A stretch of DNA of 64,000 bases, taken from a virus. Numbering within the stretch: position 1 is the first letter of the stretch; each line of letters starts with the position of its first letter. The notes beneath the pieces were generated by a model. That model worked only from the letters and a program-made list of their open reading frames with translations. It was not told the origin of the DNA and did no database searches. Below are positions 18 through 41,998 of this stretch, one piece after another. The translations under genes and the position numbers were made by a program. The DNA is taken from positions 39,940 through 103,939 of the IMG/VR virus record IMGVR_UViG_3300003323_000724. One strand, written 5' to 3'.

Positions 18-1238
18 ATGGGACGGCGTGACGATGACGAATTCGAGATCGAGGACCGGCGGCGTGAGAGCTATGTGTCGGGAGGAGGGTCTGGGGCACT
101 GGAAATTCCCACCGGACTGAGTTTTCTCAAGATGGATTGGGAGGGGTCCAAGTTACTGGAGTTCATCCCGTTCAAAGTGACCGAAGCCCACCTGAAGTTC
201 TCTTCGGCGTTCCCGAAGAACCTTCAGTTCAGCCGGCCCGGGAAATGGTATCCCGAACGGACGTACTTCCGGCACGAGAACGTTGGACCGGACAACGGCC
301 GGTACGCTTGCCCGTACATGAACTTCGGGAAGAAGTGCCCGATCTGTGAGGAACGGTCGCGGCTGGCCAAATCTCCCAACCCGATCGACAAGAAGGCGGC
401 GGAAAAGCTCCGGCCGAAGGAACGGCAATTGTTTTTGGTCATGCTGCGGGACCAAAAGAGTGGCCGGTTGGAGGACGGAATCAAACTGATCGAGTTGTCC
501 ACGGCCGCGTTCGGCAAGCAACTTGATGCGTTCATTCAGAACGCTCTGCCGCGCTACCAAGAGGCGTACTCGCAATATTACCACCCACTCAAGGGACTGA
601 CGGTTCAGGTCGTGGGTGCGAAGGAGAAGATGAAGAACAACGACACGGGTGAAGGAAGCTCGTGGAACAAGTACACCCCGATGCGGTGTGACCAACGGGA
701 AGACCCGATCCCGCGCGAGGTGTTCGACCACGGGTTCGACCTGGACGCGATGGTCCGCGAGGTGAGCTATGAAACCCTTCGGAAAGCCTTTTACGGCTTG
801 GAGGAAGAGGGACAAGACGAAGATAGAGAAATCGACAATTACGTTCGCCGTCAGGAAGTTGCTCGGGAGAACGGTCCAGAGTTGAACACCGAACCGAAGC
901 GGGAACCGACCAAGGCCGAGCCGAAGAAGTCTGAACCGATCAAGGTGGATGGGTTCGCCAGCAAGGACATCGTGACATTCGACCGTAAGGGGGACAAACT
1001 GGAAGGGGAGATCATCCGGATCGATAAGGAAAAGGAAACGGCGACGGTGTACTGTGAGGATCGCGGTCGGGAATACGTTCTCGACTTCGAGGAAATGAAG
1101 GTAGTCAAGCGGGACACCACTTTCGACGCCAAACCGGAACCGGCCAAGACCGAAACAAAGAAGCCGGCCCGGGGGTGGGAAATGGGGGATGAGGACGAAC
1201 AGGACGATCGGGTAGTGAACCGAACTACGCGACGGTAG
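18..1238 (+). CDS. T4 gp32-like single-stranded DNA-binding protein
   Basis: H..(Y)ACP...GKKCPICE zinc motif, acidic C-terminal tail, position upstream of recA-like gene. Confidence 0.7.
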   Translation: MGRRDDDEFEIEDRRRESYVSGGGSGALEIPTGLSFLKMDWEGSKLLEFIPFKVTEAHLKFSSAFPKNLQFSRPGKWYPERTYFRHENVGPDNGRYACPYMNFGKKCPICEERSRLAKSPNPIDKKAAEKLRPKERQLFLVMLRDQKSGRLEDGIKLIELSTAAFGKQLDAFIQNALPRYQEAYSQYYHPLKGLTVQVVGAKEKMKNNDTGEGSSWNKYTPMRCDQREDPIPREVFDHGFDLDAMVREVSYETLRKAFYGLEEEGQDEDREIDNYVRRQEVARENGPELNTEPKREPTKAEPKKSEPIKVDGFASKDIVTFDRKGDKLEGEIIRIDKEKETATVYCEDRGREYVLDFEEMKVVKRDTTFDAKPEPAKTETKKPARGWEMGDEDEQDDRVVNRTTRR

Positions 1239-8938: not shown

Positions 8939-9712
8939 ATGGCGAACAAGAAGAAGCTCGAATGGACCCCGCAGGTTCCCGGTGAGATCGAGTATGACAT
9001 CGATCTGACGGAGGAGGAGGTTACGTTCATCAAGTGGTACTGCATAAAGCCAAACGTGGCTTACGCTTACCGCAAAACACATCCCGAGTGCAAGCAGCGG
9101 ATGGAGCTGGCCTGGAAGCGGGGCACGAACCTCTATAACCGCCCCCACGTTCGCAAGGAGATCGACGCGGCCCAGAGCGCGGTTGCGATTACGAAGGACT
9201 TGAGGACTGATGAAACCCTCATGGAAGTGAAGGCGATTGCGTTCTCGGACCCTATTGACTTGTTTGACGAGAAGGGCCAACCACTCCCACTACATGAAAT
9301 ACCGTTCGAGGTGCGTAAAGTCATTAAGGGTTTCAAGTTACGGTCAACCAAGACGGAAACGATCAGCAGCGGGAAGAAGACGAAGAAGGTCACATACGAG
9401 ATCCTCGAATATATCCCTTACGACAAGATCGACGCATTGCAAATCATCTGCAAGCACTTGGGGATCAACAAGGAGATCCCGCCTTTGGAGGCGCTGATGA
9501 ACTTGCTGCCCAAGAACGTAGCGGAGAAGTTGCGGAAACTGCTTGCTGGGGAAGTAGTTAAGTCACAAGAACAGAGAAAAGAACCGGAGGAGAAAAAGAA
9601 TGGACCGGCCGCTAGTAGTGCTCAGCAAGAAGACGGGGTACGGCAGAACTCCGGACACGGCGACGGTGTATGTGAACCGGGAGGGACTGGCGGACTTGAA
9701 GAAGTTGATTGA
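8939..9712 (+). CDS. terS: terminase small subunit
   Basis: N-term AYAY HTH-like region, IAFSDPIDLFDEKG..LPLHEIP, YDKIDALQIICKHLG (Terminase_2-like). Confidence 0.8.
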   Translation: MANKKKLEWTPQVPGEIEYDIDLTEEEVTFIKWYCIKPNVAYAYRKTHPECKQRMELAWKRGTNLYNRPHVRKEIDAAQSAVAITKDLRTDETLMEVKAIAFSDPIDLFDEKGQPLPLHEIPFEVRKVIKGFKLRSTKTETISSGKKTKKVTYEILEYIPYDKIDALQIICKHLGINKEIPPLEALMNLLPKNVAEKLRKLLAGEVVKSQEQRKEPEEKKNGPAASSAQQEDGVRQNSGHGDGVCEPGGTGGLEEVD

Positions 9713-9944: not shown

Positions 9945-10202
9945 ATGATAATCGACCGCTTGCTCGGAGTGATGTGGATCGACACGGGAAATCAGCGTTT
10001 TTACTGGAAAACCCCACCAGATTACTACGAGTGGGGCGGTCCCAAGATCGTCCGAGAGTGGCAGCGGTTCACATCGAATTTTACCCACAAGCCCCGGTGG
10101 ACGTTCTTGCAGACTGGTGCCGGGGGCGAGTTCGTGCCGGCGGATCAAGTGGACTGGTGGACCGAAGCAATGAAGGAAACACATGGAAACCAACACGATT
10201 GA
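9945..10202 (+). CDS. hypothetical protein
   Basis: operon position. Confidence 0.5.
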   Translation: MIIDRLLGVMWIDTGNQRFYWKTPPDYYEWGGPKIVREWQRFTSNFTHKPRWTFLQTGAGGEFVPADQVDWWTEAMKETHGNQHD

Positions 10203-11202
10203 CCTGCTCCGGGAAATCATCCTGAACCCGGACGATGACGCACTGCGGCTCATCTACGCGGACAAGATCGAGGAGGATGATCCGAAGAACGCGGACCGGG
10301 CGGAATTCATTAGGTTGCAAGTAGAACGAAGCAGACTAGAGGACCAAGAGTGCAAATACGACTGTCGATCGCGGATCGATTATCGATGCAAATGGTGCAA
10401 TTCCATCGATAAGGGAGATGGATTACTAGGCCGAAACCAGCAATGGTGTCCGTGGACGTGGGACGACAATCAGCGGACTCCTTTGCCTGTTTTCTGGTCC
10501 CGTGGTTTCATCGAATCGATCTCAGTTCCGGCGGACGTGTGGATCGCGAATCACTACAAAATCGCGTGGAACGAGGGGCAGGCCACGTGGTGCCCAACGT
10601 GTGCCGGCAAGTGCGGACACATAATGGGGACTTCGGACCAGTATCGGAGTCCGGCCAATTGCATGACCGAAGGAGAGTTTAAACGGGACGCGGGTAAAGG
10701 ATGGAGGTCCCTAAAACCGCATCCGACTTGGAAACGATGTGAGCAATGTGACGGCGGAAGTGTTCCGCGACCGTTACCCAAAACCGCCCACCCGATTCGG
10801 AAGGTGGAAATCACGACGAGTCCGGCGATTAACCATGAAAATGCTCGTGATGGGCGAGAACGTGCTTGGTCTAGCTGGGGGATTTTAAAGGAATGGTTGG
10901 ACCCTAGACCTTATCCAAACGGAGGGTATTTTCCTCCCGACCGTGTTTTTGCGGTGTTACAGCAGGGTTGTGAGTATTGGTGGCCCCGCATCGAATTTAC
11001 GTTCCGAGAGCGGCCGTGGGAAACAGAAAGACATTGGGTGAATGTGAACTTTGGTACTGGGGGTAGGACGGACTGGGTAGAGGCGGGAGAAGCCATTTTG
11101 GTGGGTCATCAAATTGCCGCAGATTCGCAAGGCAGAGCCGTCCGTGTTCGTGTCGGTGATTACATTGTTGGTCACGCAATTTCAAACTCCCAGACGCGAT
11201 AA
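10183..11202 (+). CDS. TIGR02996 domain protein with zinc fingers and C-terminal decoration-like beta segment
   Basis: LLREIILNPDDDALRLIYADKIEE...RAEFIRLQVE; WSRGFIESI; CxxC pairs. Confidence 0.8.
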   Translation: METNTIDLLREIILNPDDDALRLIYADKIEEDDPKNADRAEFIRLQVERSRLEDQECKYDCRSRIDYRCKWCNSIDKGDGLLGRNQQWCPWTWDDNQRTPLPVFWSRGFIESISVPADVWIANHYKIAWNEGQATWCPTCAGKCGHIMGTSDQYRSPANCMTEGEFKRDAGKGWRSLKPHPTWKRCEQCDGGSVPRPLPKTAHPIRKVEITTSPAINHENARDGRERAWSSWGILKEWLDPRPYPNGGYFPPDRVFAVLQQGCEYWWPRIEFTFRERPWETERHWVNVNFGTGGRTDWVEAGEAILVGHQIAADSQGRAVRVRVGDYIVGHAISNSQTR

Positions 11203-11226: not shown

Positions 11227-14200
11227 ATGCTAAACTGGCTCCATTGGGACACTCAACACCAACTCGGAGCCAGTTCGATGGCCGATCCGTACCGCCTACC
11301 CGTCTGGGACTACTCCGGGACGTTCGCTCAGGGTAAGTTTTTAGAACCCATCAAGCGACCGGACGGTAAGTGGTATTGGGCATCTGCCCTAACCCAGCCT
11401 AGACACCAGCTCGAAAACAAGGCCGAACTGACGGACTTCCTAGGCATTCATCCGGACAGCACTGACTTCGGTTCGCACCACATCGATAGCCATTTAGGTC
11501 AACCACTCTCCTCACAGCACGTCTGGATGCACACGGGGGGTGCCGAAGGCGAACCCCCCGTGTTGGAGCAACCGGACTGGCGTCCAACGGATACAATTCC
11601 GGAAGACTTTTACGCTTACGAGGCTGCAAACGGCCCTAGCTTCGCACAGGAAGAACAAACTCAGCATCAGATAGGCAACTGGTCAGCGGGGCAACAAAAC
11701 GCAATAGAGACGCAATACGGCGATTCTGGGCAGCACCCACTTGCGGATGAGGATGGTTGGTTGGTTCAGGACGAATCGAATCCCGTGGAGTTGACCAAGC
11801 TCGGACACGACGACCACTTGCGATATCTTCGTCCGTACCACAACGGTCACGATTGGGTTTGGCGAATTCATCGAATGGAACCGGAAGCAGCAGATTGGCT
11901 CGCACTCACTGAGTTGTTCGGAAAAGATCCCATGCATATGACTCCGGAAGAATTCAAGCACATTGGAACTCCGGACCATCAGCACCGACCCCTGACTCCG
12001 GACGAGAGGATTGTTGCCGGAATCGACCCAATGCCGGAAGTCGATTGGCGCCCCAATGAAACCATTCCCGAAGACTTTTACGCGTTTTCCCGTGGGGAAT
12101 CTCCCGTGAACTACAACTGTTACTCGTTCCACGACGTGATTGCCAAGCTCCAGCGGGCGGACCAGCCGGTTACGTACAACGAAAACGCATTCCTCGAACA
12201 GATCCGTCAGAACCCCAATGATTTTACAAACAGGGCCGTCTTTGCGGATTGGCTAGAAGATCAGGAACACCCGGACCGCAACCTGTTGGACGCCCTCCGA
12301 TCGCACCAAGGGTTCGGAACTATCAGTCGAACCCCCCAAGGGTTTCACCTCGATACCCGTTCCCGCGCCCAACAGGTCGGCGAACGGGTCGGTCGGGCGA
12401 TGGCCGAATCCGCTGCTCAGTTCGGAGATGACCTGCGAGACAGTCCGAACGGGTTTGAATTGGACTCACAGGACGCAGACCAATTACACGCGGCCGGCAT
12501 AGAGTTCGGTTCTCCCGAGTGGAGGGAAGCAGAAAACCATGCCGAACGAGCGTTTTTGGAACATTTTAACCCCCCGACACAAAACGACGGGGATGAAGGA
12601 ATGGTTGATTACGGCTGGTCCGCTCCTCTCCGAACGCGGCCAAAAACGAATGCGTTGGCCCAGTTTCATGCGCCGGGGTACGAAGTGATTGAGGACCAGC
12701 CGCAGCAGATGCAATGGGAAGAGGGCTTACTGCCCCCAACGGCCGTTTCCAAGCACCCCACGCAGGAATTTGCAGGCCAATCACTGCGGCCGAACGAACA
12801 GGGAACCGTGTGGGACAATCCGTTCCAGCCGTGGGGACAGGACTATGAGCCGGAAACGGGACTGTTTCAGCTCCCTTATGCGGAACAATTGGACGACGGG
12901 ATGTTCGATCAGGAAGGGTTTTTGTTGACTCCCAAAGGAGCGAGCCGTCGTGCGGTCCGGGGTATTCACTTCGATCCCGAAGTTGGGAATTATCGACTTC
13001 ATGGGTACTGGATCAATCGGGACGATCAGGGCAATCCGCAGTGGTGGAGCAGAGGACCATCGATGTGGAAAGGACCGTCTCCCGAACACATTGAGGGCAT
13101 GATCTACGAACCGGGGGACACTCGGGATCATATGCTTTTCGGTGAAAATCCGGATCGAACCCCTGTTTCTCCCGAGCACCTGTGGGCACTTGGATTAGGG
13201 GGCCAACCGCCGCAAGCCCCCGACGCACCCGATTGGAGAACTCCTGACACAGTTCCAGAGGACTTTTATGCGTACGGGAGGGCTGATTACGGCTGGGGCC
13301 AAACTCTGAAGTCTGCGTTCGATCTCGGTAAGCAGTACTGGCCCCAGATCGCCGCAGCCGCACCGCACGCTTGGAACGCAGCCAAGTCTTGGTGGAACGG
13401 AGAAGAAGGATCGTCCCAGCACGCCCAAAACGCTTGGGATTCTTGGAACTCGGCTACGCAGAACGATGATGATGGGGACATGGTAGGGTATGGCGACTTG
13501 TCATCCGAAAAAGCACGGGAAATTCTACATGACGGGACCGTTCACGGGCACCCGATCACGGACAAACAGAGGCGATTCTTTGGGTGGAAATCGCACCAGA
13601 CGGATTATGCTGACGAACTGAACCAGGACGAGAACAATGCGTTCATCCAAACCATCCACGCAAACCCGCTGGATGCAACGAATCACCTCGTTCATTCGGA
13701 CTGGCTCCGGGACCGGGGGCACCATGATGAAGCGGAGTTCCGACAAGCGATGGGGGAATGGGTGAAGGGTTGGAACAGGATTCAAGATTTGCACAAACCC
13801 AGATTGGACCCGGATCGACCTTGGATGGTTCCGTTATCGTTTCTTCCTGGTGGAATAGTTGCCGATAACCTCCCTGGTGCAAGATTTACTGTAGCCCGTG
13901 ATTACACGGAGCAGGCCAGACAACTGGACCCTCACACTGGAATGCGATTTAGAGACACGTATCACTACCCCTCCTACCCCCACATGGAAGAAGCCTTCCG
14001 CCGGGCCTTCCATCAGGGTCGAGGGGAACAAACCCAAGCCTCGATGTACGCCGATCCGTACCAGTACCCGAGTTTCACCGATATGAGGCTCCCGCCGGCC
14101 ACTCCCGGGACGGGCGAAATGCTCGATCCCGTCCAACTCGGGTTCACCCAGTGGACCGCACCGGGCGGACTCGCACGCATCGCCGGGCCACAGTTCATGC

Positions 14201-16290
14201 CTACCGATTGGCACTCTCCGTCAATCATGTGGAGCCAGCCGAACGGGGAGGACTACGACCAGTTCGGCCAAACTGCCGGCGATCGTGGGGAATACGCACG
14301 GGCGGACTACTTCCTTCCCGCTATTGCAGCCGCAGCGGAATCGTTAGCTCCGGCAATGGCTCGATCTGCCACAATCGGAGCTGCTTCGGACGCGGCCGGG
14401 GACCTGTTTGGCGGTGGTGATGACCAGCAAGACTACGCAGCCTACGGAATGGCCCAGTACGGCGATGAGGAAGACAACCAAGCGTTCCTGAACGCAATCC
14501 ACGCCAACCCGCTCGACGCAACCAACCACCTCGTTCACGCAGATTGGTTGGACGAACGGGGGCAGCACGGGGAAGCGGCGTTTCGGCGGGCGATGGGGGA
14601 GTGGGCTGCGAGAACCAGTCCCCATCTTCTGGACGTTACTCCATCTCGTGTCGAAGGAACTCACGGAATTTCGACACGAGCAATTCCTTCGTGGGTCAAC
14701 GGGAGGATAGGAGTATCCTCAACAAGCTCCGATCCAAATATCGGCTACTCCCCTAATTCCCTTTGGACTTATTTCCACGGGTTCGGTCCAATGGAAGAAG
14801 CCTTCCGCCGGGCCTTCCACGCGAACCAAAACACGGTCCAACCGGGCCAAATACCCGCCGATCTGGGGGACGACAGCGACGTGAGGATGGGTGGGGGCGA
14901 ACAACCGGTTGAGTTTGCCGCTTACAGCCAGATACACACCACTCACCCCGATGACGAGTCCGGCTGGGGCGAACCGGACTTTCGCCGGGAGGACGAGATT
15001 GCTAACTGGGTGAGTTCCCCGATCCCGCACCCGCACGACAACTTTCCGGGGACGCCGAGCGCTTACGCCGGCCACGTCAACCAACCCAACTGGGGCAACG
15101 TTGACGGAATCATGCGGGCGATTCCCGAGAACAAGTTCGTCGGTGGGAAGTACGGGTACAAGTCCGCTGCGAACTACGAGGGCGAAGAGGAAGCCTTTCA
15201 ACAGGCCATTCACCAGAACCCGTTCGAGTTCGTTAACCACGGGGCATATGCGGACTGGCTCCGAGAGCAAGGAAGGCACGAGGACGCCGATTTCCGAACG
15301 AACATGGGGGAATGGATGCAATCCCGGGCAGCGGGGCATGATAATGGATTTCTTCCCGTGCCGACAGTCGTTCGGCACACGGAAGCCCCGCAGTGGGCCA
15401 AGGGGAAGATTCGCATCGAGAACATTTTCACGCCCCATGCCAAAGACGCTCCGTTCCGGTGGGACTCGCGACACGTCGGGTGGGACAGTTACCCGCAGAT
15501 GGAAGAGGCTCTCCGACGTGCGCACGATTTCGTCGGTCCTCCGGTTCAGCAACACGAAGAAACACCGAACTGGTTCCGAGATCGGGAGTACCTAAGTAAT
15601 GATGCCCATCCGATGAACTACGAGCACGACTGGATGGGGCCGACGGACTATGCTCCACCGGAAAGTCTCTATGCTGCTTACGGCGATCCGGGCGACAACG
15701 GCACCACCGCATCGGCCGGGAACACGCAGGAGTGGAACTACCAGCCGAAGAATTATTGGGAAACAACCCGGTACGGCGATTTGACTTCGATGGAATATGG
15801 GGCATATTTGGGGTACGCGGACGATCAGTACGAAGACGAGCACCAGCCCGAATCGGAGATTCCAGTGGAAGAAACTACCCCGACCAGACCAGAGTTGTTA
15901 AACGGTGCTTTGGTTTCTGCTGCACTCAAGCCGTCTCGTAAGCGGGGGCCGAACGTGGGCCAATTTGATCGGGCTGCAATGGGAGCACTTGGAGACCACC
16001 TCCAAGAAATCGGGAATCCACTAGGAGTTGCCGTTTCCCATTTCGTCCGAACCGGACAGAACATCCCGTTTTCGTCCCTGTCGGGAACTTCGGAACACGA
16101 AGTGTCAACGGCCGATGGTTCACACCAAGTGTTCGGTCGGCGTGGGATCAGTCGAGACGGGAAGCCGATTGTGTGGACTGTGATTAAGCAAAACAAACCA
16201 CGCCAACACCCAGACGGACGAATTATTTGGGATAGTGACAAGTCCCACAGTTTTGCTGTTCCGGCTGAGTTGTTCGACCAACCACAATAA
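11227..16290 (+). CDS. 1687-aa modular repeat protein with four TIGR02996-like modules (putative head-packaged polyprotein)
   Basis: long ORF between terS and terL; repeats AF...I..NP.D..N..V.ADWL x4, DWRP..TIPEDFYA x3, MEEA.RRA x3. Confidence 0.8.
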   Translation: MLNWLHWDTQHQLGASSMADPYRLPVWDYSGTFAQGKFLEPIKRPDGKWYWASALTQPRHQLENKAELTDFLGIHPDSTDFGSHHIDSHLGQPLSSQHVWMHTGGAEGEPPVLEQPDWRPTDTIPEDFYAYEAANGPSFAQEEQTQHQIGNWSAGQQNAIETQYGDSGQHPLADEDGWLVQDESNPVELTKLGHDDHLRYLRPYHNGHDWVWRIHRMEPEAADWLALTELFGKDPMHMTPEEFKHIGTPDHQHRPLTPDERIVAGIDPMPEVDWRPNETIPEDFYAFSRGESPVNYNCYSFHDVIAKLQRADQPVTYNENAFLEQIRQNPNDFTNRAVFADWLEDQEHPDRNLLDALRSHQGFGTISRTPQGFHLDTRSRAQQVGERVGRAMAESAAQFGDDLRDSPNGFELDSQDADQLHAAGIEFGSPEWREAENHAERAFLEHFNPPTQNDGDEGMVDYGWSAPLRTRPKTNALAQFHAPGYEVIEDQPQQMQWEEGLLPPTAVSKHPTQEFAGQSLRPNEQGTVWDNPFQPWGQDYEPETGLFQLPYAEQLDDGMFDQEGFLLTPKGASRRAVRGIHFDPEVGNYRLHGYWINRDDQGNPQWWSRGPSMWKGPSPEHIEGMIYEPGDTRDHMLFGENPDRTPVSPEHLWALGLGGQPPQAPDAPDWRTPDTVPEDFYAYGRADYGWGQTLKSAFDLGKQYWPQIAAAAPHAWNAAKSWWNGEEGSSQHAQNAWDSWNSATQNDDDGDMVGYGDLSSEKAREILHDGTVHGHPITDKQRRFFGWKSHQTDYADELNQDENNAFIQTIHANPLDATNHLVHSDWLRDRGHHDEAEFRQAMGEWVKGWNRIQDLHKPRLDPDRPWMVPLSFLPGGIVADNLPGARFTVARDYTEQARQLDPHTGMRFRDTYHYPSYPHMEEAFRRAFHQGRGEQTQASMYADPYQYPSFTDMRLPPATPGTGEMLDPVQLGFTQWTAPGGLARIAGPQFMPTDWHSPSIMWSQPNGEDYDQFGQTAGDRGEYARADYFLPAIAAAAESLAPAMARSATIGAASDAAGDLFGGGDDQQDYAAYGMAQYGDEEDNQAFLNAIHANPLDATNHLVHADWLDERGQHGEAAFRRAMGEWAARTSPHLLDVTPSRVEGTHGISTRAIPSWVNGRIGVSSTSSDPNIGYSPNSLWTYFHGFGPMEEAFRRAFHANQNTVQPGQIPADLGDDSDVRMGGGEQPVEFAAYSQIHTTHPDDESGWGEPDFRREDEIANWVSSPIPHPHDNFPGTPSAYAGHVNQPNWGNVDGIMRAIPENKFVGGKYGYKSAANYEGEEEAFQQAIHQNPFEFVNHGAYADWLREQGRHEDADFRTNMGEWMQSRAAGHDNGFLPVPTVVRHTEAPQWAKGKIRIENIFTPHAKDAPFRWDSRHVGWDSYPQMEEALRRAHDFVGPPVQQHEETPNWFRDREYLSNDAHPMNYEHDWMGPTDYAPPESLYAAYGDPGDNGTTASAGNTQEWNYQPKNYWETTRYGDLTSMEYGAYLGYADDQYEDEHQPESEIPVEETTPTRPELLNGALVSAALKPSRKRGPNVGQFDRAAMGALGDHLQEIGNPLGVAVSHFVRTGQNIPFSSLSGTSEHEVSTADGSHQVFGRRGISRDGKPIVWTVIKQNKPRQHPDGRIIWDSDKSHSFAVPAELFDQPQ
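13984..14819 (+). repeat. exact 29-nt direct repeat (13984-14012 and 14791-14819) closing two TIGR02996 modules
   Basis: atggaagaagccttccgccgggccttcca occurs twice. Confidence 0.9.
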
Positions 16291-16292
16291 CC

Positions 16293-17915
16293 ATGTCCGC
16301 CAACACATCCGATCTTGCCAAAGCACTGGCCCGGGTCTACGGCTCACGGGCCGTAGACCGCCTCGTTTCCACGCCCGTCGCCAGTTCGGACGACATGGCG
16401 AAGTACCACGACGATCCGGTGGGGTTCATCCGCGATGCGTTTGGAATAGACCTGACAATGCCGCAGTTGAACGCGGCATTGGCAATGCCCGGACGAATTA
16501 AAATCAATTCAGGGCACGGGTTAGGTAAAACTCTCCTGTGCGCCGCTCTTGCCATTTGGTGGTACGCGACCCGGAATCCCGGCGTGGTCATCATTACCGC
16601 ACCCACCAGCCACCACATCACTACGGTTCTGTTTGCTGAAATTAGACTCCTGCTCGCCAAGTGTCGTATTAAACTGCCCGGGACCCTGTCGCCCAAGGCA
16701 CCCCTCTTGTACGACTCACCGGAGCACTGGATCGAAGGATTTACGAGTTCATCGGGGGAAGGTTTCCAAGGTCGTCACCGCGCGAGCATGTTTTTCATCT
16801 TTGACGAGTGCGAAGACGTAGACGCGGTATATTGGCAAACTACCGAAACGATGTACAAGGACGGAGAAGACCATGCTTGGCTTACCGTTGGTAATCCATT
16901 AACAACGTCTTCGCAAAGCTACCTTGAAGACTTGGCCGAACGGGAGGACGGAACGCCGAAATGGAAGCAGTACGTATTGTCCTCGATGGATCACCCCAAC
17001 ATCATCGCTCAACTCAATGGTGAACCACCGCCGATACCCAACGCGGTTACGCTTCACCAAGTTAACCAGTGGGTCAAGGACTGGACCGATCCGGTTCAAT
17101 TTGGCGACATCAAGCCATTGGACTTCGAGTGGCCCGTAGGATCACAGAAGTGGCGCAGACCATCCCCGATCTTTAAGGGCCGCGTTCTCGGCATTCGACC
17201 GACGGAAGGGGTTGATACGGTTTGGGGCGCCGTTGTGTGGCAAATGGCCACGACACGAACTGCTAACCCCTCCGCTTGTTGGTGGGGCGAATACGGTATT
17301 ACAATTGGTGTGGACGTTGCTATGTTCGGGGACGATTCAACGGCCATTCACCTTCGCAGTGGTCCGATGAGTTTGCTGCACGAGGAACACAACGGCTGGA
17401 CACCTCAGCAAACGGCCGGTCGTCTGAAGGACTTGTGCGTTGAGTACGCTGACGTTTACAACTCGTGGGCGGTGATCCCCACTCGTCCGCGACTGGAACC
17501 GTCTGACGTTAGCGTAGTTATCGAAGTGGATGGGTACGGGTATTCGGTACTGTCACACTGTGACGGGTTTGGTAACTGGTCCGGGTTTAAGGCCGGGGAA
17601 GCATCGACCGCTTTGGACCATAAGGGCCAGCCCCGGTACACGAAAAGACGGAGCGAGATGTGGTTCACCGGTAAGGAAAAGGCTATGGGGGGCCAAATGG
17701 ACCTGTCGTACTTACCCCAAGACGTGTTGCAGAAACTTCGACTGGAACTGATGTCGTCCATGTATTGGGCGACATCATCGGGGGCAATTCAGGTCGAAGA
17801 GAAAGTGGACATCAAGAAGCGGCTGAAAAAGTCCCCAGACGGGGCCGACGCACTGCTAGTTTGCTACGCGGACGTAACTTCGGATCTTCCAATGGCGATA
17901 ATCAGGGGGGAGTAG
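16293..17915 (+). CDS. terL: terminase large subunit
   Basis: SGHGLGKT Walker A, ITAPT, FQGRH, FIFDE Walker B, VGNP, GVDVAMFGDD nuclease, SPDGADAL. Confidence 0.95.
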   Translation: MSANTSDLAKALARVYGSRAVDRLVSTPVASSDDMAKYHDDPVGFIRDAFGIDLTMPQLNAALAMPGRIKINSGHGLGKTLLCAALAIWWYATRNPGVVIITAPTSHHITTVLFAEIRLLLAKCRIKLPGTLSPKAPLLYDSPEHWIEGFTSSSGEGFQGRHRASMFFIFDECEDVDAVYWQTTETMYKDGEDHAWLTVGNPLTTSSQSYLEDLAEREDGTPKWKQYVLSSMDHPNIIAQLNGEPPPIPNAVTLHQVNQWVKDWTDPVQFGDIKPLDFEWPVGSQKWRRPSPIFKGRVLGIRPTEGVDTVWGAVVWQMATTRTANPSACWWGEYGITIGVDVAMFGDDSTAIHLRSGPMSLLHEEHNGWTPQQTAGRLKDLCVEYADVYNSWAVIPTRPRLEPSDVSVVIEVDGYGYSVLSHCDGFGNWSGFKAGEASTALDHKGQPRYTKRRSEMWFTGKEKAMGGQMDLSYLPQDVLQKLRLELMSSMYWATSSGAIQVEEKVDIKKRLKKSPDGADALLVCYADVTSDLPMAIIRGE

Positions 17916-23807: not shown

Positions 23808-24227
23808 ATGAGCACCGAGTTGAAGCTAGGCCAACTGATTGAGGGCAACCCACAGCGGGACGCCATTCACATCGCCGTGATTCCGATGGTGGCGATTAGG
23901 ACGATGAAACCGGGTGAACACCTGAAGAACGGGTGCGTAGACCCATTCCTGAATGCTCCAGTGCAGCCCGGACAGCGGTTTTGGCTGTTTTTGTATCCGA
24001 ACACAGTTACCAGCCTGCGGCACGTCTGGGAACATGCCGCATTTCCCACGGAACCGGAACTGCCCGAGAAGCGGCGTTCCGAAGCGGACGTGTGGGCCGA
24101 ACAGACGGTGCTGATGGACCAACCGGGAACGTTTACCACAGTGGACTACGCGGACCTTCCGCCGATGACGGAAGAGATCAGGGACAGCATCGTTGAAGTG
24201 TGGGAACGGCAAGGGAGGACCAAGTGA
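23808..24227 (+). CDS. conserved phage hypothetical protein
   Basis: RDAIHIAV, VDPFL..PV.PGQRFWLFLYPNTVTSLRHVWEH. Confidence 0.65.
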   Translation: MSTELKLGQLIEGNPQRDAIHIAVIPMVAIRTMKPGEHLKNGCVDPFLNAPVQPGQRFWLFLYPNTVTSLRHVWEHAAFPTEPELPEKRRSEADVWAEQTVLMDQPGTFTTVDYADLPPMTEEIRDSIVEVWERQGRTK

Positions 24228-37522: not shown

Positions 37523-37696
37523 GGAAACCGATAGATTTTGTTCCGGATTGGCTGTTTTCGGAGTCCTTTGCCCACGAATTGGAGAAAGTCAAAAAATTTT
37601 GTCGGATTTGCCCTAAATTTGTGTTTACTTGTTGCCACGGCATCCTATACGCTAATTCAAACGGGCAGCGATCGACTAGCTATCTTTCGCCACAAA

Positions 37697-37773
37697 CCAA
37701 TGCCACTGAGAGAGACGGGAGCGAATCCCGATCCGGTGTGGTTGGTTTCACACTTCTCCTTCAGTGGCATTGG
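37697..37773 (+). promoter_or_regulatory. structured 5' leader (three-way junction) of protease/scaffold gene
   Basis: 13-bp perfect stem 37697-37709 / 37761-37773 enclosing two hairpins. Confidence 0.5.
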
Positions 37774-37795
37774 CTCCCACCTCAAGGCCACTGAG

Positions 37796-39613
37796 TTGTC
37801 TACCCACTACTTAGCACCCACTCCCGAAACACCTCCCGCCGCTATTACGCCGGATCAGGTGCCCACGGGTGTCGATGCCACGGCGTCATTCGGGCAAAAG
37901 ATAAACGATTCGAGCAAATGGAAAGTAGTTAGTGGGGTTCCTGTATTCAAGGCGCACCAGCGAACTGACCCCAACACACAAAAGCTGATTTCGGTTGACC
38001 TTCCCAAGCTCTATCGAATTGCCGAGAACATGCAGCGGATGGAGCGACAGGGCGGCGTGCCGATTCGGATGACTTTAGGACACACCGAGCCGGGGAAGCC
38101 CGAGACACAGCAGCCCCCGATTGCTGGGTACTACCGAAACGCACGGGTGCAGAAGTTCGGACCCGGCGGCGAACCGGCAATCGTTGTAGATGAGTTTCTC
38201 GACCCCCAGTTCTCGAACGTGCGGAAGAACTACCCGTACCGCAGTTCGGAATACTACGACGACACGGAACAGATTACCGGTGTCGCACTCCTAACCCGCG
38301 ACCCGTTCCTCGATCTTGGCGTAGTCGCCTATCAGAAGGGCGACCAAAGCAACCTGACTTACGAGAACCGGCAGACCACTTCCTTTGTGGCCCACGCGAC
38401 GGAAATCCCCGGTTCCGGCCAAACGAATCCTTCTACCGGGCGCACCCCGGTAATGTACCGCCTCAACCTCGGAGAAGTTCCTATGTACCCGCAGGGTGCG
38501 CCCCAGCCGAACCAATTCGTTCCGCCCCCGCAACAGGTTCCGGTTGCCCCGCAACCGACTCCTTACGCTGCTCCCGTTCAACAGTCCGACCCGCAGCCTG
38601 TGTGGGGCCAAACCGTTCCCGCTCCGACGCCCTACGCTTACCCGCGTCCGGTTTCGTACTGGGACGGCACCCAAGCCTCTGGTGGCAACCCGCCCCGGCC
38701 GGTTCCGCACCAACACCAGAACACGGGTGCGATCTACAGCCAGAACGGTCGCGGTGGGATCGGCCGCTACGCGGACGAACCGCCGATGGGTGGCCCTCCG
38801 AACGCTGGTCCTCCTGGAAGCGAACCGGGGAACAGTGGCCCGACCGCTTCACCGCTGGATCAAGTACGGGAACTGCTGATGCAAGCCGCTCAAGTCCTTG
38901 CGGACTGTGAAGGTGGCGGCATGGGTGGCCCCGGCGGTCCTCCGATGATGGCTTCTCGTACCGGCGGCAATGCTCGCTACGGCCGTACTCCGAGCCGCCC
39001 GCGTCTCTCCCCGGGAGCACGGTACGAAACTCCCCGGACCCCGACGCAGTACACCGGTGCGACAACCATTTCTGGGATGCCCGTGGGTGTCCAGATGGAA
39101 ATGGACAAGCTGAAGCTCGAAAACACCCAGCTCAAGCAGGGGATGAACGTCCTGTTCTACGAACGGGACCAAGCGGACACCCACGCTTGCATCGAGACCG
39201 TTCGCAGCCTTCAGTACCAAGGCTTCCAGGTCGGCGAGTACGAGGTTTCGGAACTCAAGAAGAAGACCCCGGAAGAACGGGCCGCTTACGTTCAGCACAT
39301 CGCGACCCACTACCAACAGATCGGCACCACGCCGCTTCCGCAGCAGTTGGGTGATCCGACCCCGGCTGGGGCGGAACCGGTTCCACCGATGACCAAGGAA
39401 CACATGCAAGCGGCCCTGCGTGCGACTCAGGGAAACAACGACTCGAACGCATTTATTGCGGCCATGACGCACTATCAGCGGAACGGTGTCCCGGCCGGTA
39501 GCCGATTTACCCCTCCGACGGTGCAACCGAGCTATGCGTTCGACCAGAACCCGTTCGAGGGGCAAGCGGTTCCCAACGCCGCTCCCGGGACGAACCCGTA
39601 CTCGATGGATTGA
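37796..39613 (+). CDS. Mu gpI-like prohead protease fused to scaffolding domain
   Basis: VP...LGH...P.AG, YPYRSSEY, ITGVALLTRDPFL; Pro/Gln-rich then coiled-coil C-terminus; start uncertain (TTG 37796 or ATG 37700). Confidence 0.75.
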   Translation: MSTHYLAPTPETPPAAITPDQVPTGVDATASFGQKINDSSKWKVVSGVPVFKAHQRTDPNTQKLISVDLPKLYRIAENMQRMERQGGVPIRMTLGHTEPGKPETQQPPIAGYYRNARVQKFGPGGEPAIVVDEFLDPQFSNVRKNYPYRSSEYYDDTEQITGVALLTRDPFLDLGVVAYQKGDQSNLTYENRQTTSFVAHATEIPGSGQTNPSTGRTPVMYRLNLGEVPMYPQGAPQPNQFVPPPQQVPVAPQPTPYAAPVQQSDPQPVWGQTVPAPTPYAYPRPVSYWDGTQASGGNPPRPVPHQHQNTGAIYSQNGRGGIGRYADEPPMGGPPNAGPPGSEPGNSGPTASPLDQVRELLMQAAQVLADCEGGGMGGPGGPPMMASRTGGNARYGRTPSRPRLSPGARYETPRTPTQYTGATTISGMPVGVQMEMDKLKLENTQLKQGMNVLFYERDQADTHACIETVRSLQYQGFQVGEYEVSELKKKTPEERAAYVQHIATHYQQIGTTPLPQQLGDPTPAGAEPVPPMTKEHMQAALRATQGNNDSNAFIAAMTHYQRNGVPAGSRFTPPTVQPSYAFDQNPFEGQAVPNAAPGTNPYSMD

Positions 39614-39693: not shown

Positions 39694-40179
39694 ATGATGG
39701 ACTTAGACCTAGACTTCAATCTGCTGCCGTCTGAAATCATCTACGGCGCCCGCGCAATTCAACTGGACCCGGCCAACCAAGGGTACTGCTACCAAGGCAC
39801 CCTCAATGGCCGCTGTGTCGGGGTTTCGATCCAGGGCACCGGGACCGCTCCGGGTGCGATCGGTTCGACTCCTCCGCTCCCGCTGGCCATTCCATCGAGT
39901 AATGCCGCGTACCCCTACGTTCCAGGGGGTATTACGAACATGCAAGTCGCGGTGTACGGTCCGAACCGGAACTGCTTGATCGAAATCGATCCGAGCTTCG
40001 CCGGTCAGATCAAGCCCGGCGACCTGATTCGTTCGAGCAACAGCGGCTACGGCACCTTGGCCAGCCCCACCGGTGCTTACAACCAGTGGATTATCGGCAT
40101 TGCACGCACGTTCGCCAACGGCGGACAGTGCTGCAACATCAAGGTGTCCGTGTTCCCGTGGCTGCCGACCGGATCGTAA
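39694..40179 (+). CDS. capsid decoration/cement protein (DUF2190-like)
   Basis: between scaffold and capsid; IKPGDLIRSSNSGYG...IIGIA. Confidence 0.6.
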   Translation: MMDLDLDFNLLPSEIIYGARAIQLDPANQGYCYQGTLNGRCVGVSIQGTGTAPGAIGSTPPLPLAIPSSNAAYPYVPGGITNMQVAVYGPNRNCLIEIDPSFAGQIKPGDLIRSSNSGYGTLASPTGAYNQWIIGIARTFANGGQCCNIKVSVFPWLPTGS

Positions 40180-40543: not shown

Positions 40544-41998
40544 ATGTTACCGACCAACCCGGCGAACGGGGCAGCACAAACCCAAACCGCTCCGACGGTT
40601 CAGCAAATGGGGTTTAACCCCATGCAGTTCACGCCGAATCCTACCCTCGGGGACAAGACTCGGAACCGTGATTGGGCCAAGCGGGAAGCGCAACTCAATT
40701 ACGAGATGGCGCAAGCCCCGCTCCCGCACCAGTACACCACGGCATCGGCCCACCCGATGTTCGGTGGTGGGTCCGGCAGTCCGCTAACCCAGTGGCTTCC
40801 GCAAGGGCAGCCCACGGGCTTCGCGGCGAACAAGGCTCCGGTGCTCTACAGCAACCCGGGTACGGCCCCGATGGTCCGCCCGACGTATGCGTACAACAAC
40901 CGGCTCGTGGGTATCAACCCGAGACAGCCGACGATGTACGTGGGAACGTGGCCGAACCAGCAGTACCCGGCTGGCTCTAACACGTACATTCCGAACTGGG
41001 AAGCCACCGGGATCATCATCAAATTCACCCGGGACGCCTCCAAGTTTCGGATCAACAAGTACCTCAAGTTCCTGACCGTACCGAAGGATCAGGGGTACTA
41101 TCTGACCCTCGACGCGGACAACCCGTACCGGATCATCAACCCCGCTGACTGGGCGTGGGAAGACGGCGCGGACGCTCCCGGCGGTCGTGGCAATAAGCAA
41201 GGGTTCGGGTTCCAGCCGTACAAGACGAGCCGGATGTGCTTCCCGTTCACCCTCGGGCAGAAGTCCGTTACGCAGGCCGAATGGCCGATCGTTGCGGAAC
41301 ACGCGATGATGGCCGCGTGCCAAGCGATGACGCTGCGAACGATCGTGAGCACGGCTCTGTTGACCAACACGGCTAACTGGACCGGTTCGTTCGGTACGAA
41401 CACGTCCGCTCAGTCCGCTCAGTGGACGAACGCGGCGTCCAACACGTCGAACGCGATCCAGACGGACATCAACACGGCGATGATCGCGATCGAACAGGCT
41501 TCGGGCGGTATCGTTACCGACGAGGAAGCCCTGAACATCACCCTGAACCCGGTAACGGCTCGGGGTATCGCGAAGTCCTACGAGTACAAGCAGTACATCC
41601 AAGGGTCTCCGGACGCCCTGGCTGCGATCACGGACCAACGGAACCCGAACCGCAAGTACGGTCTCGCCCCGTACCTCTACGGTCTGGCTCTGGTGGTGGA
41701 AAACGCCATCCAGGTGACCACACCGAAGTCGGACAACGTGGCTTCTCCGCTGGCACAGAGCCGTAGCTACATTTGGGCTAACCAGTACGTGAACATCACC
41801 AGCAAGCCCACCGGGTTGGTTGGTGAGGATCAGCAAACCTTGGACTTCAGCACAGTGGCAATGCGAAGTCTAGAAAACTTAACGACAGAAACTAAGGCAG
41901 ACCCCGATAACCGCCGCGAAACCGGCCGCGTCGTAGATGAATTCTGTACGTGTGTTCAGGCACCTCAGACGGGGTACTTGATTACTGGTGTCACGTAA
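40544..41998 (+). CDS. major capsid protein with ~140-aa N-terminal propeptide
   Basis: size, position, strong codon bias; HK97-like elements (ITLNP.TA, LAPYLYGLALVVE). Confidence 0.8.
   Translation: MLPTNPANGAAQTQTAPTVQQMGFNPMQFTPNPTLGDKTRNRDWAKREAQLNYEMAQAPLPHQYTTASAHPMFGGGSGSPLTQWLPQGQPTGFAANKAPVLYSNPGTAPMVRPTYAYNNRLVGINPRQPTMYVGTWPNQQYPAGSNTYIPNWEATGIIIKFTRDASKFRINKYLKFLTVPKDQGYYLTLDADNPYRIINPADWAWEDGADAPGGRGNKQGFGFQPYKTSRMCFPFTLGQKSVTQAEWPIVAEHAMMAACQAMTLRTIVSTALLTNTANWTGSFGTNTSAQSAQWTNAASNTSNAIQTDINTAMIAIEQASGGIVTDEEALNITLNPVTARGIAKSYEYKQYIQGSPDALAAITDQRNPNRKYGLAPYLYGLALVVENAIQVTTPKSDNVASPLAQSRSYIWANQYVNITSKPTGLVGEDQQTLDFSTVAMRSLENLTTETKADPDNRRETGRVVDEFCTCVQAPQTGYLITGVT

Follow-up and report, generated by a model that had tools for sequence, protein, structure and literature searches.

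A tyrosine-punctuated modular phage protein encoded beside the large terminase gene, a candidate for protease-processed head cargo

Introduction

In phage T4, the internal proteins IPI-III and Alt are small cargo proteins, encoded by separate genes, from which gp21 removes an N-terminal leader of 10-20 aa and which are ejected together with the DNA. The cut made by gp21 follows Glu (L/I-x-E), and the cleavage motif of phiKZ and SPN3US also ends in Glu. Among the viruses with true polyproteins, the 2A protease of enteroviruses cuts at Tyr-Gly. To our knowledge, few planctomycete phages have been studied.

Closest to the present case are the polyvalent proteins of phages and conjugative elements, in which 2 to 15 distinct globular domains stand in one polypeptide, and which their authors compare to viral polyproteins (Iyer et al. 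2017, PMC5512222). The domain inventory of that study includes MPTase, ART, ParB, methylase-helicase, PBECR and LPDs; the words 'linker' and 'tandem' are not used in its main text, and planctomycete phages are not covered (PMC5512222). It is through sequence analysis that polyvalent phage proteins have become known, and the separation of their domains is usually ascribed to an embedded peptidase.

Here we describe a gene in a window of 64,000 nt, that is, the whole stretch analysed (positions 39,940 to 103,939 of the IMG/VR record IMGVR_UViG_3300003323_000724), to which all coordinates refer. A preliminary description held that its product, which we call the polyprotein, had no described equivalent. 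That was wrong, because the concept of polyvalent phage proteins, including portal and MuF fusions, had been published by Iyer et al. (2017, PMC5512222).

Results

The gene and its neighbours

The positions of the gene, of its modules and of the head genes of the phage are listed in Table 1. The frame has no internal stop and translates to 1687 aa, the length first reported. The gene-caller protein (P0002), however, has 1670 aa and begins at Met18. A GGAG lies 8 nt 5' of the ATG of Met18, and no GGAG precedes 11227. The true start is thus probably Met18, giving a protein of 1670 aa.

The gene had been placed between the two terminase genes. On the terL side this is exact, since the stop codon is followed by a gap of 2 nt and then by the ATG of terL, a distance that would be close enough for translational coupling. 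On the terS side, however, about 1.5 kb with up to three ORFs intervenes, and one of these ORFs is a 339-aa TIGR02996 gene.

Table 1. Features of the polyprotein gene and of the head genes of the phage.
Feature	Position	Strand	Basis
Small terminase subunit (terS)	8939..9712	+	PF03592, E 1.6e-12; phrog_51
339-aa TIGR02996-headed gene, directly 5' of the polyprotein	10183..11202	+	TIGR02996 search
Polyprotein ORF	11227..16290	+	open frame; probable start 11278
Type A module 1, aa 42-134, end DWRP..TIPEDFYAY	11350..11628	+	self-similarity; D3; stretch homologous in P0006
Type A module 2, aa 170-293, after joint ETQY-G	11734..12105	+	self-similarity; homology
Type B1, short TIGR02996-headed module, aa 318-372	12178..12342	+	TIGR02996; self-similarity
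Unit aa 376-445, then TQND..MVDY-G aa 451-463	12352..12615	+	P0096; internal repeat
Type A module 3, aa 616-687, end TVPEDFYAY-GRADY-G	13072..13287	+	self-similarity; D3
TQND..MVGY-G joint + KAREILHDGTVHG..KQRRFFG unit, aa 744-790	13456..13596	+	homology
Type B2, aa 795-941, between Y794-A and Y941-A	13609..14049	+	AlphaFold; homologue termini
Type B3, aa 1079-1205, after QQDY-AAY-GMAQY-G	14461..14841	+	TIGR02996; self-similarity; D2 repeat
Type B4, aa 1318-1435, after AANY-E	15178..15531	+	TIGR02996; self-similarity
Acidic Tyr-dense linker, aa 1455-1540, 13 Tyr	15589..15846	+	Tyr count
C-terminal unit, aa 1555-1687	15889..16287	+	sole relative = stretch of polyprotein P0079
Large terminase subunit (terL)	16293..17915	+	phrog_2; homologues neighbouring polyproteins in L080, L079
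Mu-type portal, 996 aa, tail about 500 aa	32773..35763	+	PF06074, E 2.2e-34
Protease-scaffold protein: gp21-like N-domain, disordered Tyr-rich linker, coiled coil	37736..39613	+	AlphaFold
Probable major capsid protein, Tyr-punctuated low-complexity N-arm about 140 aa, end YPAGSNTYIP	40544..41998	+	position, conservation

Module composition

By self-similarity and domain searches, the polyprotein of this IMG/VR phage contig falls into some 12 units, which belong to at least 6 kinds. The string of modules proposed earlier is a true concatenate, of which the modules also exist as separate proteins. The three type A copies (aa 68-137, 227-293 and 616-687 by self-similarity) were borne out by a DNA repeat, D3, which falls exactly at 11575, 12043 and 13231. 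Type A module 2 is also found on the portal tail of P0011, where it follows ETQY-A.

As reported at first, the polyprotein contains a TQND...MV.YG unit twice (aa 451-463 and 744-756) and a KAREILHDG unit. The region of aa 376-445 and 451-463 repeats with aa 696-756, and a separate protein of 97 aa (P0096) spans aa 376-445. At 55-82% identity, the KAREILHDG...RRFFG unit (aa 757-790) is also present in no fewer than 30 proteins of 54-1437 aa that are otherwise unrelated; in several of these, a Tyr-small joint precedes it.

Pfam, PHROGs and PADLOC gave no function for the polyprotein. At the profile level it matched only TIGR02996 (the head), a PHROG without a name and, by chance and below threshold, the protein A 'B domain'. 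Searches with Pfam and the MuF model revealed in the polyprotein neither a domain known to anchor proteins in the capsid, such as MuF or portal, nor an embedded peptidase, and the MuF model matched nothing in the whole genome. A PDB sequence search found no match to the modules, and the ESM Atlas gave no usable match to the C-terminal unit or the KAREIL unit.

The type B module and TIGR02996

The TIGR02996 model of NCBIfam matches the polyprotein in four stretches (E 1.8e-40; 136.4 bits against a curated cut-off of 29.05), which start at 12181, 13630, 14473 and 15184. Four heads had been described earlier as TIGR02996-like. A six-frame search of the genome gave 10 TIGR02996 sites, all above the cut-off; the six further genes are scattered outside the head module and have no Tyr joints.

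The type B domain of about 140 aa consists of the TIGR02996 head, which is a three-helix unit, a small sheet and a closing helix. Copies 2-4 reach about 120-140 aa and end in Y-P-x-MEEAFRRAF, and an exact 29-nt repeat (D2) is common to B2 and B3. The short B1 is preceded by PVNY-N and PVTY-N, and the same subtype is found in P0007 and L080. The AlphaFold model of B2 is confident (pLDDT 86, pTM 0.78). When this model was searched with Foldseek against the PDB and BFVD, and then more widely, only generic TPR-like helical hairpins were obtained (Z at most 5.6).

An exhaustive HMMER search returned dozens of stand-alone proteins of 125-200 aa that span the type B module in full, and the ends of these homologues map at most 7 aa from both Y794 and Y941. 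Cellular matches to TIGR02996 are nearly all from Planctomycetota, mostly Gemmataceae, and LRRs follow the domain in both host proteins that have Pfam matches. In host genomes, TIGR02996 genes are preceded by a gene for a small protein of about 110-170 aa. For the full type B module there is at most one possible cellular match (L056). Our literature search found no paper mentioning TIGR02996.

Tyr joints

All 11 Tyr that had been listed at module boundaries are present (Y164, 296, 317, 462, 688, 794, 941, 1070, 1078, 1317 and 1475), and the motif is conserved there across the family. The enrichment also held against shuffled controls: Tyr is followed by Gly or Ala 24 times in the polyprotein, and 10.5 +/- 2.9 times in 5000 shuffles. 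When module cores were defined by homology (54% of the polyprotein), 23 of the 24 Tyr-[G/A] sites lay outside them, and 80% of all Tyr fall between modules. The idea of a single Tyr per boundary was right in that Tyr is present, but most joints hold two or three, with 24 Y-[G/A] sites for roughly 13 boundaries. This surplus fits a Tyr-rich linker equally well as single cut sites.

Among the relatives, a Tyr stands at -9 to -5 from the conserved Phe in 35 of 57 internal heads, where 15% would be expected (P = 2.5e-15). Around this Tyr, Pro occupies P4 in 19, P3 holds Thr or Val in 20, and Gly is the P1' residue in 15. The consensus of the joint is P-[T/V]-x-Y-[G/S/T/A], often paired with R-Y-[A/G/S]-R. 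Leaderless stand-alone type B forms begin after the joint Tyr, and the joint Tyr is therefore outside the minimal fold. Half of the stand-alone forms have a leader of 14-16 aa ending L-[K/R]-Y-[G/A/S], at the same offset as the joint Tyr. By analogy, this short leader resembles a capsid-targeting peptide of the T4 type. No leader-like N-terminus was found on the other proteins of this phage or of the loci examined.

In the whole genome, the joint motif occurs 10 times, and 9 of these occurrences are in the polyprotein, the portal, the protease-scaffold protein and the capsid protein. When the polyprotein was set aside, 6 of the remaining 7 were in the other three proteins (P = 1.3e-5). In the protease-scaffold protein, a linker of about 250 aa is predicted by AlphaFold to be disordered and is full of the Tyr-small pattern. 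In the scaffold linkers of 74 related phages, Pro at -3, Thr at -2 and Gly or Ala at +1 of Tyr are enriched. The portal tail has a linker rich in Pro and repeats the capsid peptide (PAGSNTYIP); it also contains PVEY-T, ASRY-A and an HExxH motif.

The capsid protein matched no family in profile searches; that it is the major capsid protein is probable from its position after the protease-scaffold gene and its conservation in relatives. The 9-residue peptide at the boundary of its N-arm is copied in the portal tail both here and in L079 and L163, and the portal tails of P0011 and P0019 carry a similar peptide. P1' is Ile, Leu or Val in the capsid and portal peptide, as against Gly, Ala or Ser at the cargo joints, and a single protease specificity may not cover both. 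A short recurrent motif common to cargo, scaffold, portal and capsid N-arm is what is expected of prohead-protease substrates, and such a motif was found here. As judged from these sequences, the Tyr joint probably marks a cut site of the capsid protease.

The same joints can be read differently. The polyprotein might be packaged but left uncut, acting at full length like the N4 virion RNA polymerase, with its Tyr/Arg-rich joints serving as sticky motifs that bind the scaffold or the capsid interior and load the protein. Several Tyr at one joint, the gathering of Tyr between modules and the Tyr-small pattern that fills the scaffold linker would all suit such a role, and Iyer et al. (PMC5512222) mention cargo that is packaged unprocessed. 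The AlphaFold model also speaks for it: the expectation that the Tyr motifs lie in disordered linkers holds in part only, and Y794 and Y941 are placed in the low-confidence ends of helices (pLDDT 66-78), not in open coil. We nevertheless regard this reading as unlikely. The flanking residues (Pro at P4, Thr/Val at P3, a small residue at P1') keep a fixed offset from the module and look like protease subsites, the stand-alone forms whose short leader ends at the joint Tyr resemble cleaved targeting peptides, and the peptide from the boundary of the capsid N-arm, which is copied in portal tails, suggests a shared processing.

Relatives and portal fusions

The relatives of the polyprotein come from an exhaustive HMMER search. 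A word-indexed protein search returned only the polyprotein itself, at near and at shorter lengths; no GenBank phage matched the phage DNA or the polyprotein, and terL used as query found no relative in IMG/VR. Proteins with the same modules are P0003 (3185 aa, 11-12 heads), P0005 (2499 aa, 8 heads), P0004 (944 aa) and P0009 (800 aa), and the arrays of the family range from 3 to 12 TIGR02996 heads. P0003, P0004 and P0009 lie on contigs equal in length to contigs with homologues of the protease-scaffold gene, which suggests the same phage clade. Homologues with other module numbers were thus seen, as had been looked for, and the orders differ too: P0079 has the same modules in shuffled order.

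In at least 5 proteins, among them P0008, P0011, P0019 and P0022 (= L079), the C-terminal tail of a Mu-type portal bears modules of type A or B. Because of this fusion to the portal, the modules should lie inside the capsids of those phages. The P0019 portal is also fused to a 2H phosphoesterase, an architecture described for injected cargo (Iyer et al. 2017, PMC5512222). In two close relatives the gene order is kept, terS-polyprotein in L009 and polyprotein-terL in L080. In more distant relatives the giant gene is absent before terL, and unrelated small genes fill the slot.

This last observation would suit a polyprotein that is not in the virion at all, but works late in infection as a multi-domain protein of the cytoplasm, such as a multivalent decoy aimed at the host partner of TIGR02996 proteins. 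The gene would then occupy a variable slot beside terL by chance, and the Tyr would cap or space the domains. The scattering of the six other TIGR02996 genes outside the head module and the failure to find a capsid-anchoring domain in the polyprotein point the same way. On the other side stand the same modules on the tails of the portals, the concentration of the joint motif, beyond the polyprotein, in portal, scaffold and capsid proteins, and the leaderless stand-alone homologues, which show that the Tyr is unneeded for the fold. We therefore think that a cytoplasmic role is improbable.

The candidate protease

The best PDB match of the N-domain of the protease-scaffold protein (aa 1-200 of the 625-aa form) is T4 gp21 (5jbl_A; Z 7.0, rmsd 3.6, 111 aa), followed by the VZV protease (Z 5.9). 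The fold match is middling: the Foldseek E-values are not significant, and no protease family was recognized by sequence, with no match in the genome to the Mu-like_Pro model either. In 74 homologues, His74, His116 and Ser170 are invariant.

If the polyprotein is cut, another enzyme might do it, namely the zincin-like HExxH unit of the portal tail or a host protease. The HExxH stands between two Tyr joints of that tail and is also present in the L161 portal tail, and Iyer et al. (2017, PMC5512222) proposed that polyvalent proteins are released by embedded zincin peptidases. Yet neither the MPTase-PolyVal nor the Prp model gave a match in the phage genome, and across the 74 relatives the highest density of the motif is reached in the linker of the protease-scaffold protein itself, as is typical of self-processing prohead proteases. 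We consider a different cutter very unlikely.

Two other explanations were rejected: an assembly or frameshift artefact, since the frame is conserved and a second gene call (on a 104,063 bp contig, possibly of the same phage) is identical from Met18 on, and a tape-measure or tail protein, because the tail genes lie at 45-56 kb, in another module of the genome.

Discussion

We tentatively favour the view, to which we give a little less than an even chance, that the polyprotein is a capsid-packaged polyvalent cargo which is cut at its Tyr joints by a gp21-fold prohead protease; the packaging, the cutting, the cutter, the ejection and the target are what we infer. In this scheme, a phage of roughly 100 kb, most likely infecting Gemmataceae, would encode a polyvalent head-cargo protein of about a dozen modules, translated as a single chain from the gene 2 nt 5' of terL. 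The chain would enter the procapsid together with the portal tail and the scaffold, the gp21-fold protease of the phage would cut it at the P-[T/V]-x-Y joints, and DNA ejection would carry the pieces out of the capsid. Since host TIGR02996 heads LRR proteins, the four type B pieces plausibly act on the host partner of this domain, by binding it or by competing for it.

With more doubt, we extend this scheme to a whole clade of ~100-kb planctomycete phages. There, a Tyr-directed prohead protease may dice cargo, be it free or attached to the portal, and may also remove the leaders from single-module proteins; a dozen or more proteins may be injected, with several TIGR02996 copies aimed at a partner in Gemmataceae.

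What is new here is one conserved joint motif, common to the scaffold, the portal tail, the capsid N-arm and the leaders of single-module proteins. The motif predicts a cutting code, that is, a P1 Tyr specificity for a gp21-fold protease, and with its help module boundaries can be read in thousands of giant phage proteins that lack annotation. It also ties TIGR02996, a planctomycete-specific domain of no assigned function, to a possible phage-host conflict. In the literature we found no description of a Tyr junction code or of tandem host-domain modules, and nothing on this planctomycete phage system.

The likeness to the polyprotein of picornaviruses is an analogy only, without homology: the joints are of the Tyr-Gly type with Thr nearby, and the cutting of the phage protein is a prediction. 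The Gemmataceae 'repeat-companion' proteins are closer, because their TIGR02996 head meets the same NCBIfam model as every type B module; the phage modules, however, have the small sheet and the closing helix (Y-R-x-MEEAFRRAF) where the host proteins have LRRs.

In phiKZ and SPN3US (gp175/gp245), a single prohead protease processes many head-internal proteins, some of them at several places, by way of one short motif that recurs (PMC5694885, PMC10052503, PMC7411985). These giant phages have many separate genes and are not known to have tandem arrays of one module. The T4 cargo would share with the present system the removal of a leader at a short motif, the ejection with the DNA and, if the middling fold match holds, the fold of the protease, but here the units form one chain and Tyr is the candidate P1 residue.

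The polyvalent proteins remain the closest parallel. In them, as here, many domains are joined in one chain but can also be found alone or in other, shuffled combinations, the gene belongs to the portal-terminase neighbourhood, and portals bear fused copies of these domains. The differences are that Pfam found none of the 131 inventory domains and no embedded peptidase in the polyprotein, that its array consists largely of repeats of two small non-enzymatic modules, and that its joints carry one conserved Tyr motif, which is absent from the description by Iyer et al. (PMC5512222).

The polyprotein gene and its setting

On translation, the polyprotein frame was uninterrupted over its 1687 residues, as the preliminary description had stated. 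The public gene call begins at Met18 and gives 1670 aa. Because GGAG stands 8 nt ahead of the Met18 ATG (11278) and none precedes the first ATG, 11278 is the likelier start. The window forms the 64 kb at the right-hand end of an IMG/VR phage contig of 103,939 bp, and the features discussed here are listed in the table. The terL gene starts 2 nt from the polyprotein stop codon, and between terS and the polyprotein lie a TIGR02996 gene of 339 aa and at most two small ORFs.

Positions and sizes of the features discussed (window coordinates, except where residues, a locus or a contig are indicated)
Feature	Position	Size	Remark
terS	8939-9712		
Polyprotein	11227-16290 (+)	1687 aa	
Type A modules	aa 68-137, 227-293, 616-687		self-comparison
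Type B heads (B1-B4)	aa 318, 800, 1081, 1318		self-comparison
KAREIL unit	13495-13596 (aa 757-790)		KAREILHDGTVHG.P.T.KQRRFFG
Exact repeat in B2 and B3	13984-14012; 14791-14819	29 nt	encodes MEEAFRRAF
terL	16293-17915		
Cassette partner ORF	23808-24227		
Mu-type portal	32773-35763		
Portal tail	34210-35763		
Protease-scaffold gene	37538-39613, or 37736-39613 with the later start		
Probable capsid gene	40544-41998		
Tail genes	right of the probable capsid gene		
L079 portal	L079:6593-10447		peptide pair
L079 capsid	L079:18807-20441		peptide pair
L163 portal	L163:2346-5276		peptide pair
L163 capsid	L163:13037-14575		peptide pair
Partner-gene examples	L019:9663-10046; L047:9607-9939; L150:1349-1738		
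Long terL genes	G003:C1:16252-18216; G002:C1:32688-35039	668 and 859 aa	match in two parts
P0003	78,626-bp contig	3185 aa	11-12 heads, spacing about 200-230 aa
P0005		2499 aa	8 heads
P0004	101,558-bp contig	944 aa	3 heads
P0009	103,719-bp contig	800 aa	one type B module and a kinase-like match
P0079		1331 aa	type A and a relative of the C-terminal unit, order changed

Six further TIGR02996 sites occur elsewhere in the phage, and the likeness of these paralogues to the polyprotein modules is limited to the head. Cellular matches to the head come nearly all from Planctomycetota, chiefly Gemmataceae, which points to Gemmataceae as the likely host. A literature search found no paper on TIGR02996. 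Separately, a gene of 91-168 aa stands directly upstream of the TIGR02996 match at no fewer than 14 loci from genomes or metagenomes, several of which are named Planctomycetota MAGs, and it is homologous to an ORF of the phage (E 1e-21 to 1e-26). The pair resembles a conserved two-gene cassette of which the phage carries the partner gene too; Pfam and PADLOC gave zero matches for the partner family.

Modules of the polyprotein and their relatives

The three type A and four type B copies of the preliminary description were recovered by self-comparison, by four matches to NCBIfam TIGR02996 (136 bits, cut-off 29) and by DNA repeats at the coordinates it had reported. The modularity of the polyprotein is close to certain. 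Type B copies 2-4 are complete modules of about 120-140 aa with a C-terminal Y-P-x-MEEAFRRAF. B2 and B3 share the exact 29-nt repeat, yet their heads have only 75% DNA identity, which suggests recent duplication or local gene conversion. Type A closes with the short and highly conserved motif DWRP..[I/L/M/V]PED[F/Y][Y/F], up to four copies of which are found in other large proteins.

An exhaustive HMMER search with polyprotein residues 1-1200 found 300 relatives; word-indexed protein searches returned the self-match alone. Homologues with different module numbers, which the preliminary description had proposed to look for, were among them (P0003, P0004, P0005 and P0009 in the table). The contigs of P0003, P0004 and P0009 equal in size those carrying homologues of the protease-scaffold gene, and the arrays are therefore assigned to a single clade of phages whose genomes measure about 101-107 kb. 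Of the close relatives, L009 has terS and then directly a polyprotein running off the contig, while in L080 terL (E 3e-197) comes directly after a polyprotein of 1072 aa or more. Dozens of stand-alone type B proteins (125-200 aa) span the entire module. One form begins 4-5 residues ahead of the conserved Phe of the head and frequently has a basic tail; the other has a 14-16 aa leader, M..F...LN..L-[K/R]-Y-[G/A/S], and stops shortly past the closing helix.

The AlphaFold model of B2, with the alignment of relatives as input, is confident (pLDDT 86, pTM 0.78) and predicts three helices, a small sheet and a closing helix. Comparison with solved and viral structures gave nothing similar beyond generic helical hairpins. 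The most conserved piece of the polyprotein is the KAREIL unit, which occurs, C-terminally or internally, in no fewer than 30 proteins (54-1437 aa; 55-82% identity) that have nothing else in common. In several of these a Tyr-small joint and GG-L-[S/T] stand ahead of it. The unit may be a widespread tag.

Tyrosine at the module joints

All 11 Tyr sites listed in the preliminary description were located, and most joints hold more than one Tyr. The polyprotein contains 24 instances of Tyr-Gly or Tyr-Ala against 10.5 +/- 2.9 in shuffled controls, and 23 of these 24 sites lie outside the module cores, which make up 54% of the chain and were drawn by us from homology, so that this figure is not wholly independent. 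Joints were also counted in the relatives, leaving out the polyprotein itself, with the conserved head Phe as anchor. Tyr was present at -9 to -5 in 35 of 57 internal heads against 15% expected (P = 2.5e-15). Around it, Pro was at -3 in 19, Thr or Val at -2 in 20, and Gly at +1 in 15, the remainder being chiefly Ser, Thr, Asp or Ala.

Leaders of stand-alone proteins terminate in Tyr or Phe at an offset equal to that of the joint Tyr. Leaderless stand-alone type B proteins begin downstream of this position, which places the joint Tyr outside the minimal fold. Stand-alone N-ends map to aa 799-800 or 784-787 of the polyprotein and C-ends to aa 934-939 or 951-957; these ends were placed within 7 residues of Y794 and Y941, the Tyr flanking B2. 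The expectation that such Tyr lie in disordered linkers was borne out in part: the ends of the B2 model are of low confidence (pLDDT 66-78), but its first and last helices reach over Y794 and Y941. Type A modules are followed, within about 12 residues, by a second motif in which R and a short stretch precede [K/R]-Y-[A/G/S], and several relatives show the double form R-Y-[A/S]-R-T-D-Y-[G/A]. The joint ahead of the second type A copy reads ETQY-G in the polyprotein and ETQY-A on the tail of the portal P0011.

The same motif in head proteins

Ten copies of the motif P-[T/V]-x-Y plus one small or acidic residue were counted genome-wide, over about 28,000 residues: 3 in the polyprotein, 2 in the portal, 3 in the protease-scaffold protein, 1 in the capsid protein and 1 elsewhere. 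With the polyprotein excluded, 6 of 7 fall in the portal, protease-scaffold and capsid proteins, whose share of the Tyr is 11% (P = 1.3e-5).

The protease-scaffold protein belongs to no Pfam family. Its 74 homologues (58-81% identity; 14 of the first 68 on 101-107 kb contigs) mark a well-populated clade of uncultured phages. Around their low-complexity Tyr, three positions are enriched: Pro at -3 (35%, background 20%), Thr at -2 (16%, background 5%) and Gly or Ala at +1 (49%, background 28%). All four linkers inspected have an [N/S]-[A/S]-R-Y-[G/A] site. In the AlphaFold model, residues 50-190 form a folded N-domain, followed by a disordered linker of 250 aa rich in Tyr and by a coiled coil. 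Among 48,161 solved chains, the top match of the N-domain was T4 prohead protease gp21 (111 residues, rmsd 3.6) with a middling Z of 7.0, followed by VZV protease (Z 5.9). Foldseek alone gave no significant match, with HCMV protease recurrent in its list. His74, His116 and Ser170 are invariant across the family.

In the probable capsid protein, PAGSNTYIP marks the boundary between the low-complexity N-arm and the conserved body, and the portal tail contains a copy. L079 and L163 have retained the pair (YPGG[K/S]NT[Y/F]IP; FPGGSNTY[I/L]), which suggests one recognition event common to capsid and portal. Similar peptides occur on the portal side in P0011 and P0019. We regard this peptide as a candidate shared maturation site.

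Proposed mechanism and alternatives

The portal fusions weigh most here: P0008, P0011, P0019 and P0022 are Mu-type portals bearing type A or B modules on long C-terminal tails, P0022 being the portal of L079, a 101-kb relative that shares head genes. Cargo fused in this way sits inside the capsid, and the same architecture was the basis on which Iyer et al. inferred injected cargo (PMC5512222). A capsid location of the polyprotein is rather probable; its cutting is possible, a little short of an even chance. Our best reading of the whole chain, offered tentatively, is that of packaged polyvalent cargo. The polyprotein would be made late, alongside terminase, and would enter the procapsid; there the putative gp21-fold protease would dice it at the Tyr joints, the pieces would leave with the DNA, and type B pieces would work via their host-type TIGR02996 head. 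The preliminary description is confirmed in its observation and partly supported in its interpretation.

Alternatively, the polyprotein may be packaged yet uncut, its Tyr/Arg joints serving as loading 'stickers'. We consider this reading unlikely. Just as doubtful is an unpackaged polyprotein that serves in the cytoplasm as a multivalent decoy and whose gene occupies a variable slot. In three more distant phages (terL about 50% identical) the slot is filled by unrelated small genes. Cutting by the HExxH unit of the portal, whose tail of about 500 aa has joints of like kind, or by a host enzyme is very unlikely. Prp, MPTase-PolyVal, Mu-like protease and MuF models had no match in the genome.

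The HExxH motif of this tail is HEMFH, and its C-terminal stretch looks GNAT-like by eye alone; Pfam and PADLOC gave no match to either region. An insertion of about 345 aa interrupts the portal domain of L079, and in two related phages terL, with its match split in two, encodes 668 and 859 aa instead of 540. These may be inteins or homing elements.

Comparison with known systems

T4 internal proteins carry capsid-targeting leaders and are cut by gp21, and the ejection proteins of phiKZ and SPN3US are cut at a single recurrent motif. By analogy, these would be the closest mechanistic models for the proposed packaged and cut polyprotein.

The earlier statement that no equivalent had been described does not stand. 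Polyvalent proteins, including portal and MuF fusions, were described by Iyer et al. (2017; PMC5512222), who likened them to viral polyproteins freed by embedded peptidases and did not discuss joints. The polyprotein agrees with them in architecture, mosaicism and context but departs in domain content, none of their domains being detected. The general concept of polyvalent cargo is thus already published, and the cutting code is here a proposal. Unlike known systems, the polyprotein consists of tandem repeats of small non-enzymatic modules, its repeated unit is a host-specific domain, and a conserved Tyr joint is common to chained cargo, single-module leaders, portal tail, scaffold and capsid N-arm. 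Such an array of host domains is unusual, and the putative Tyr junction code is concrete and testable.
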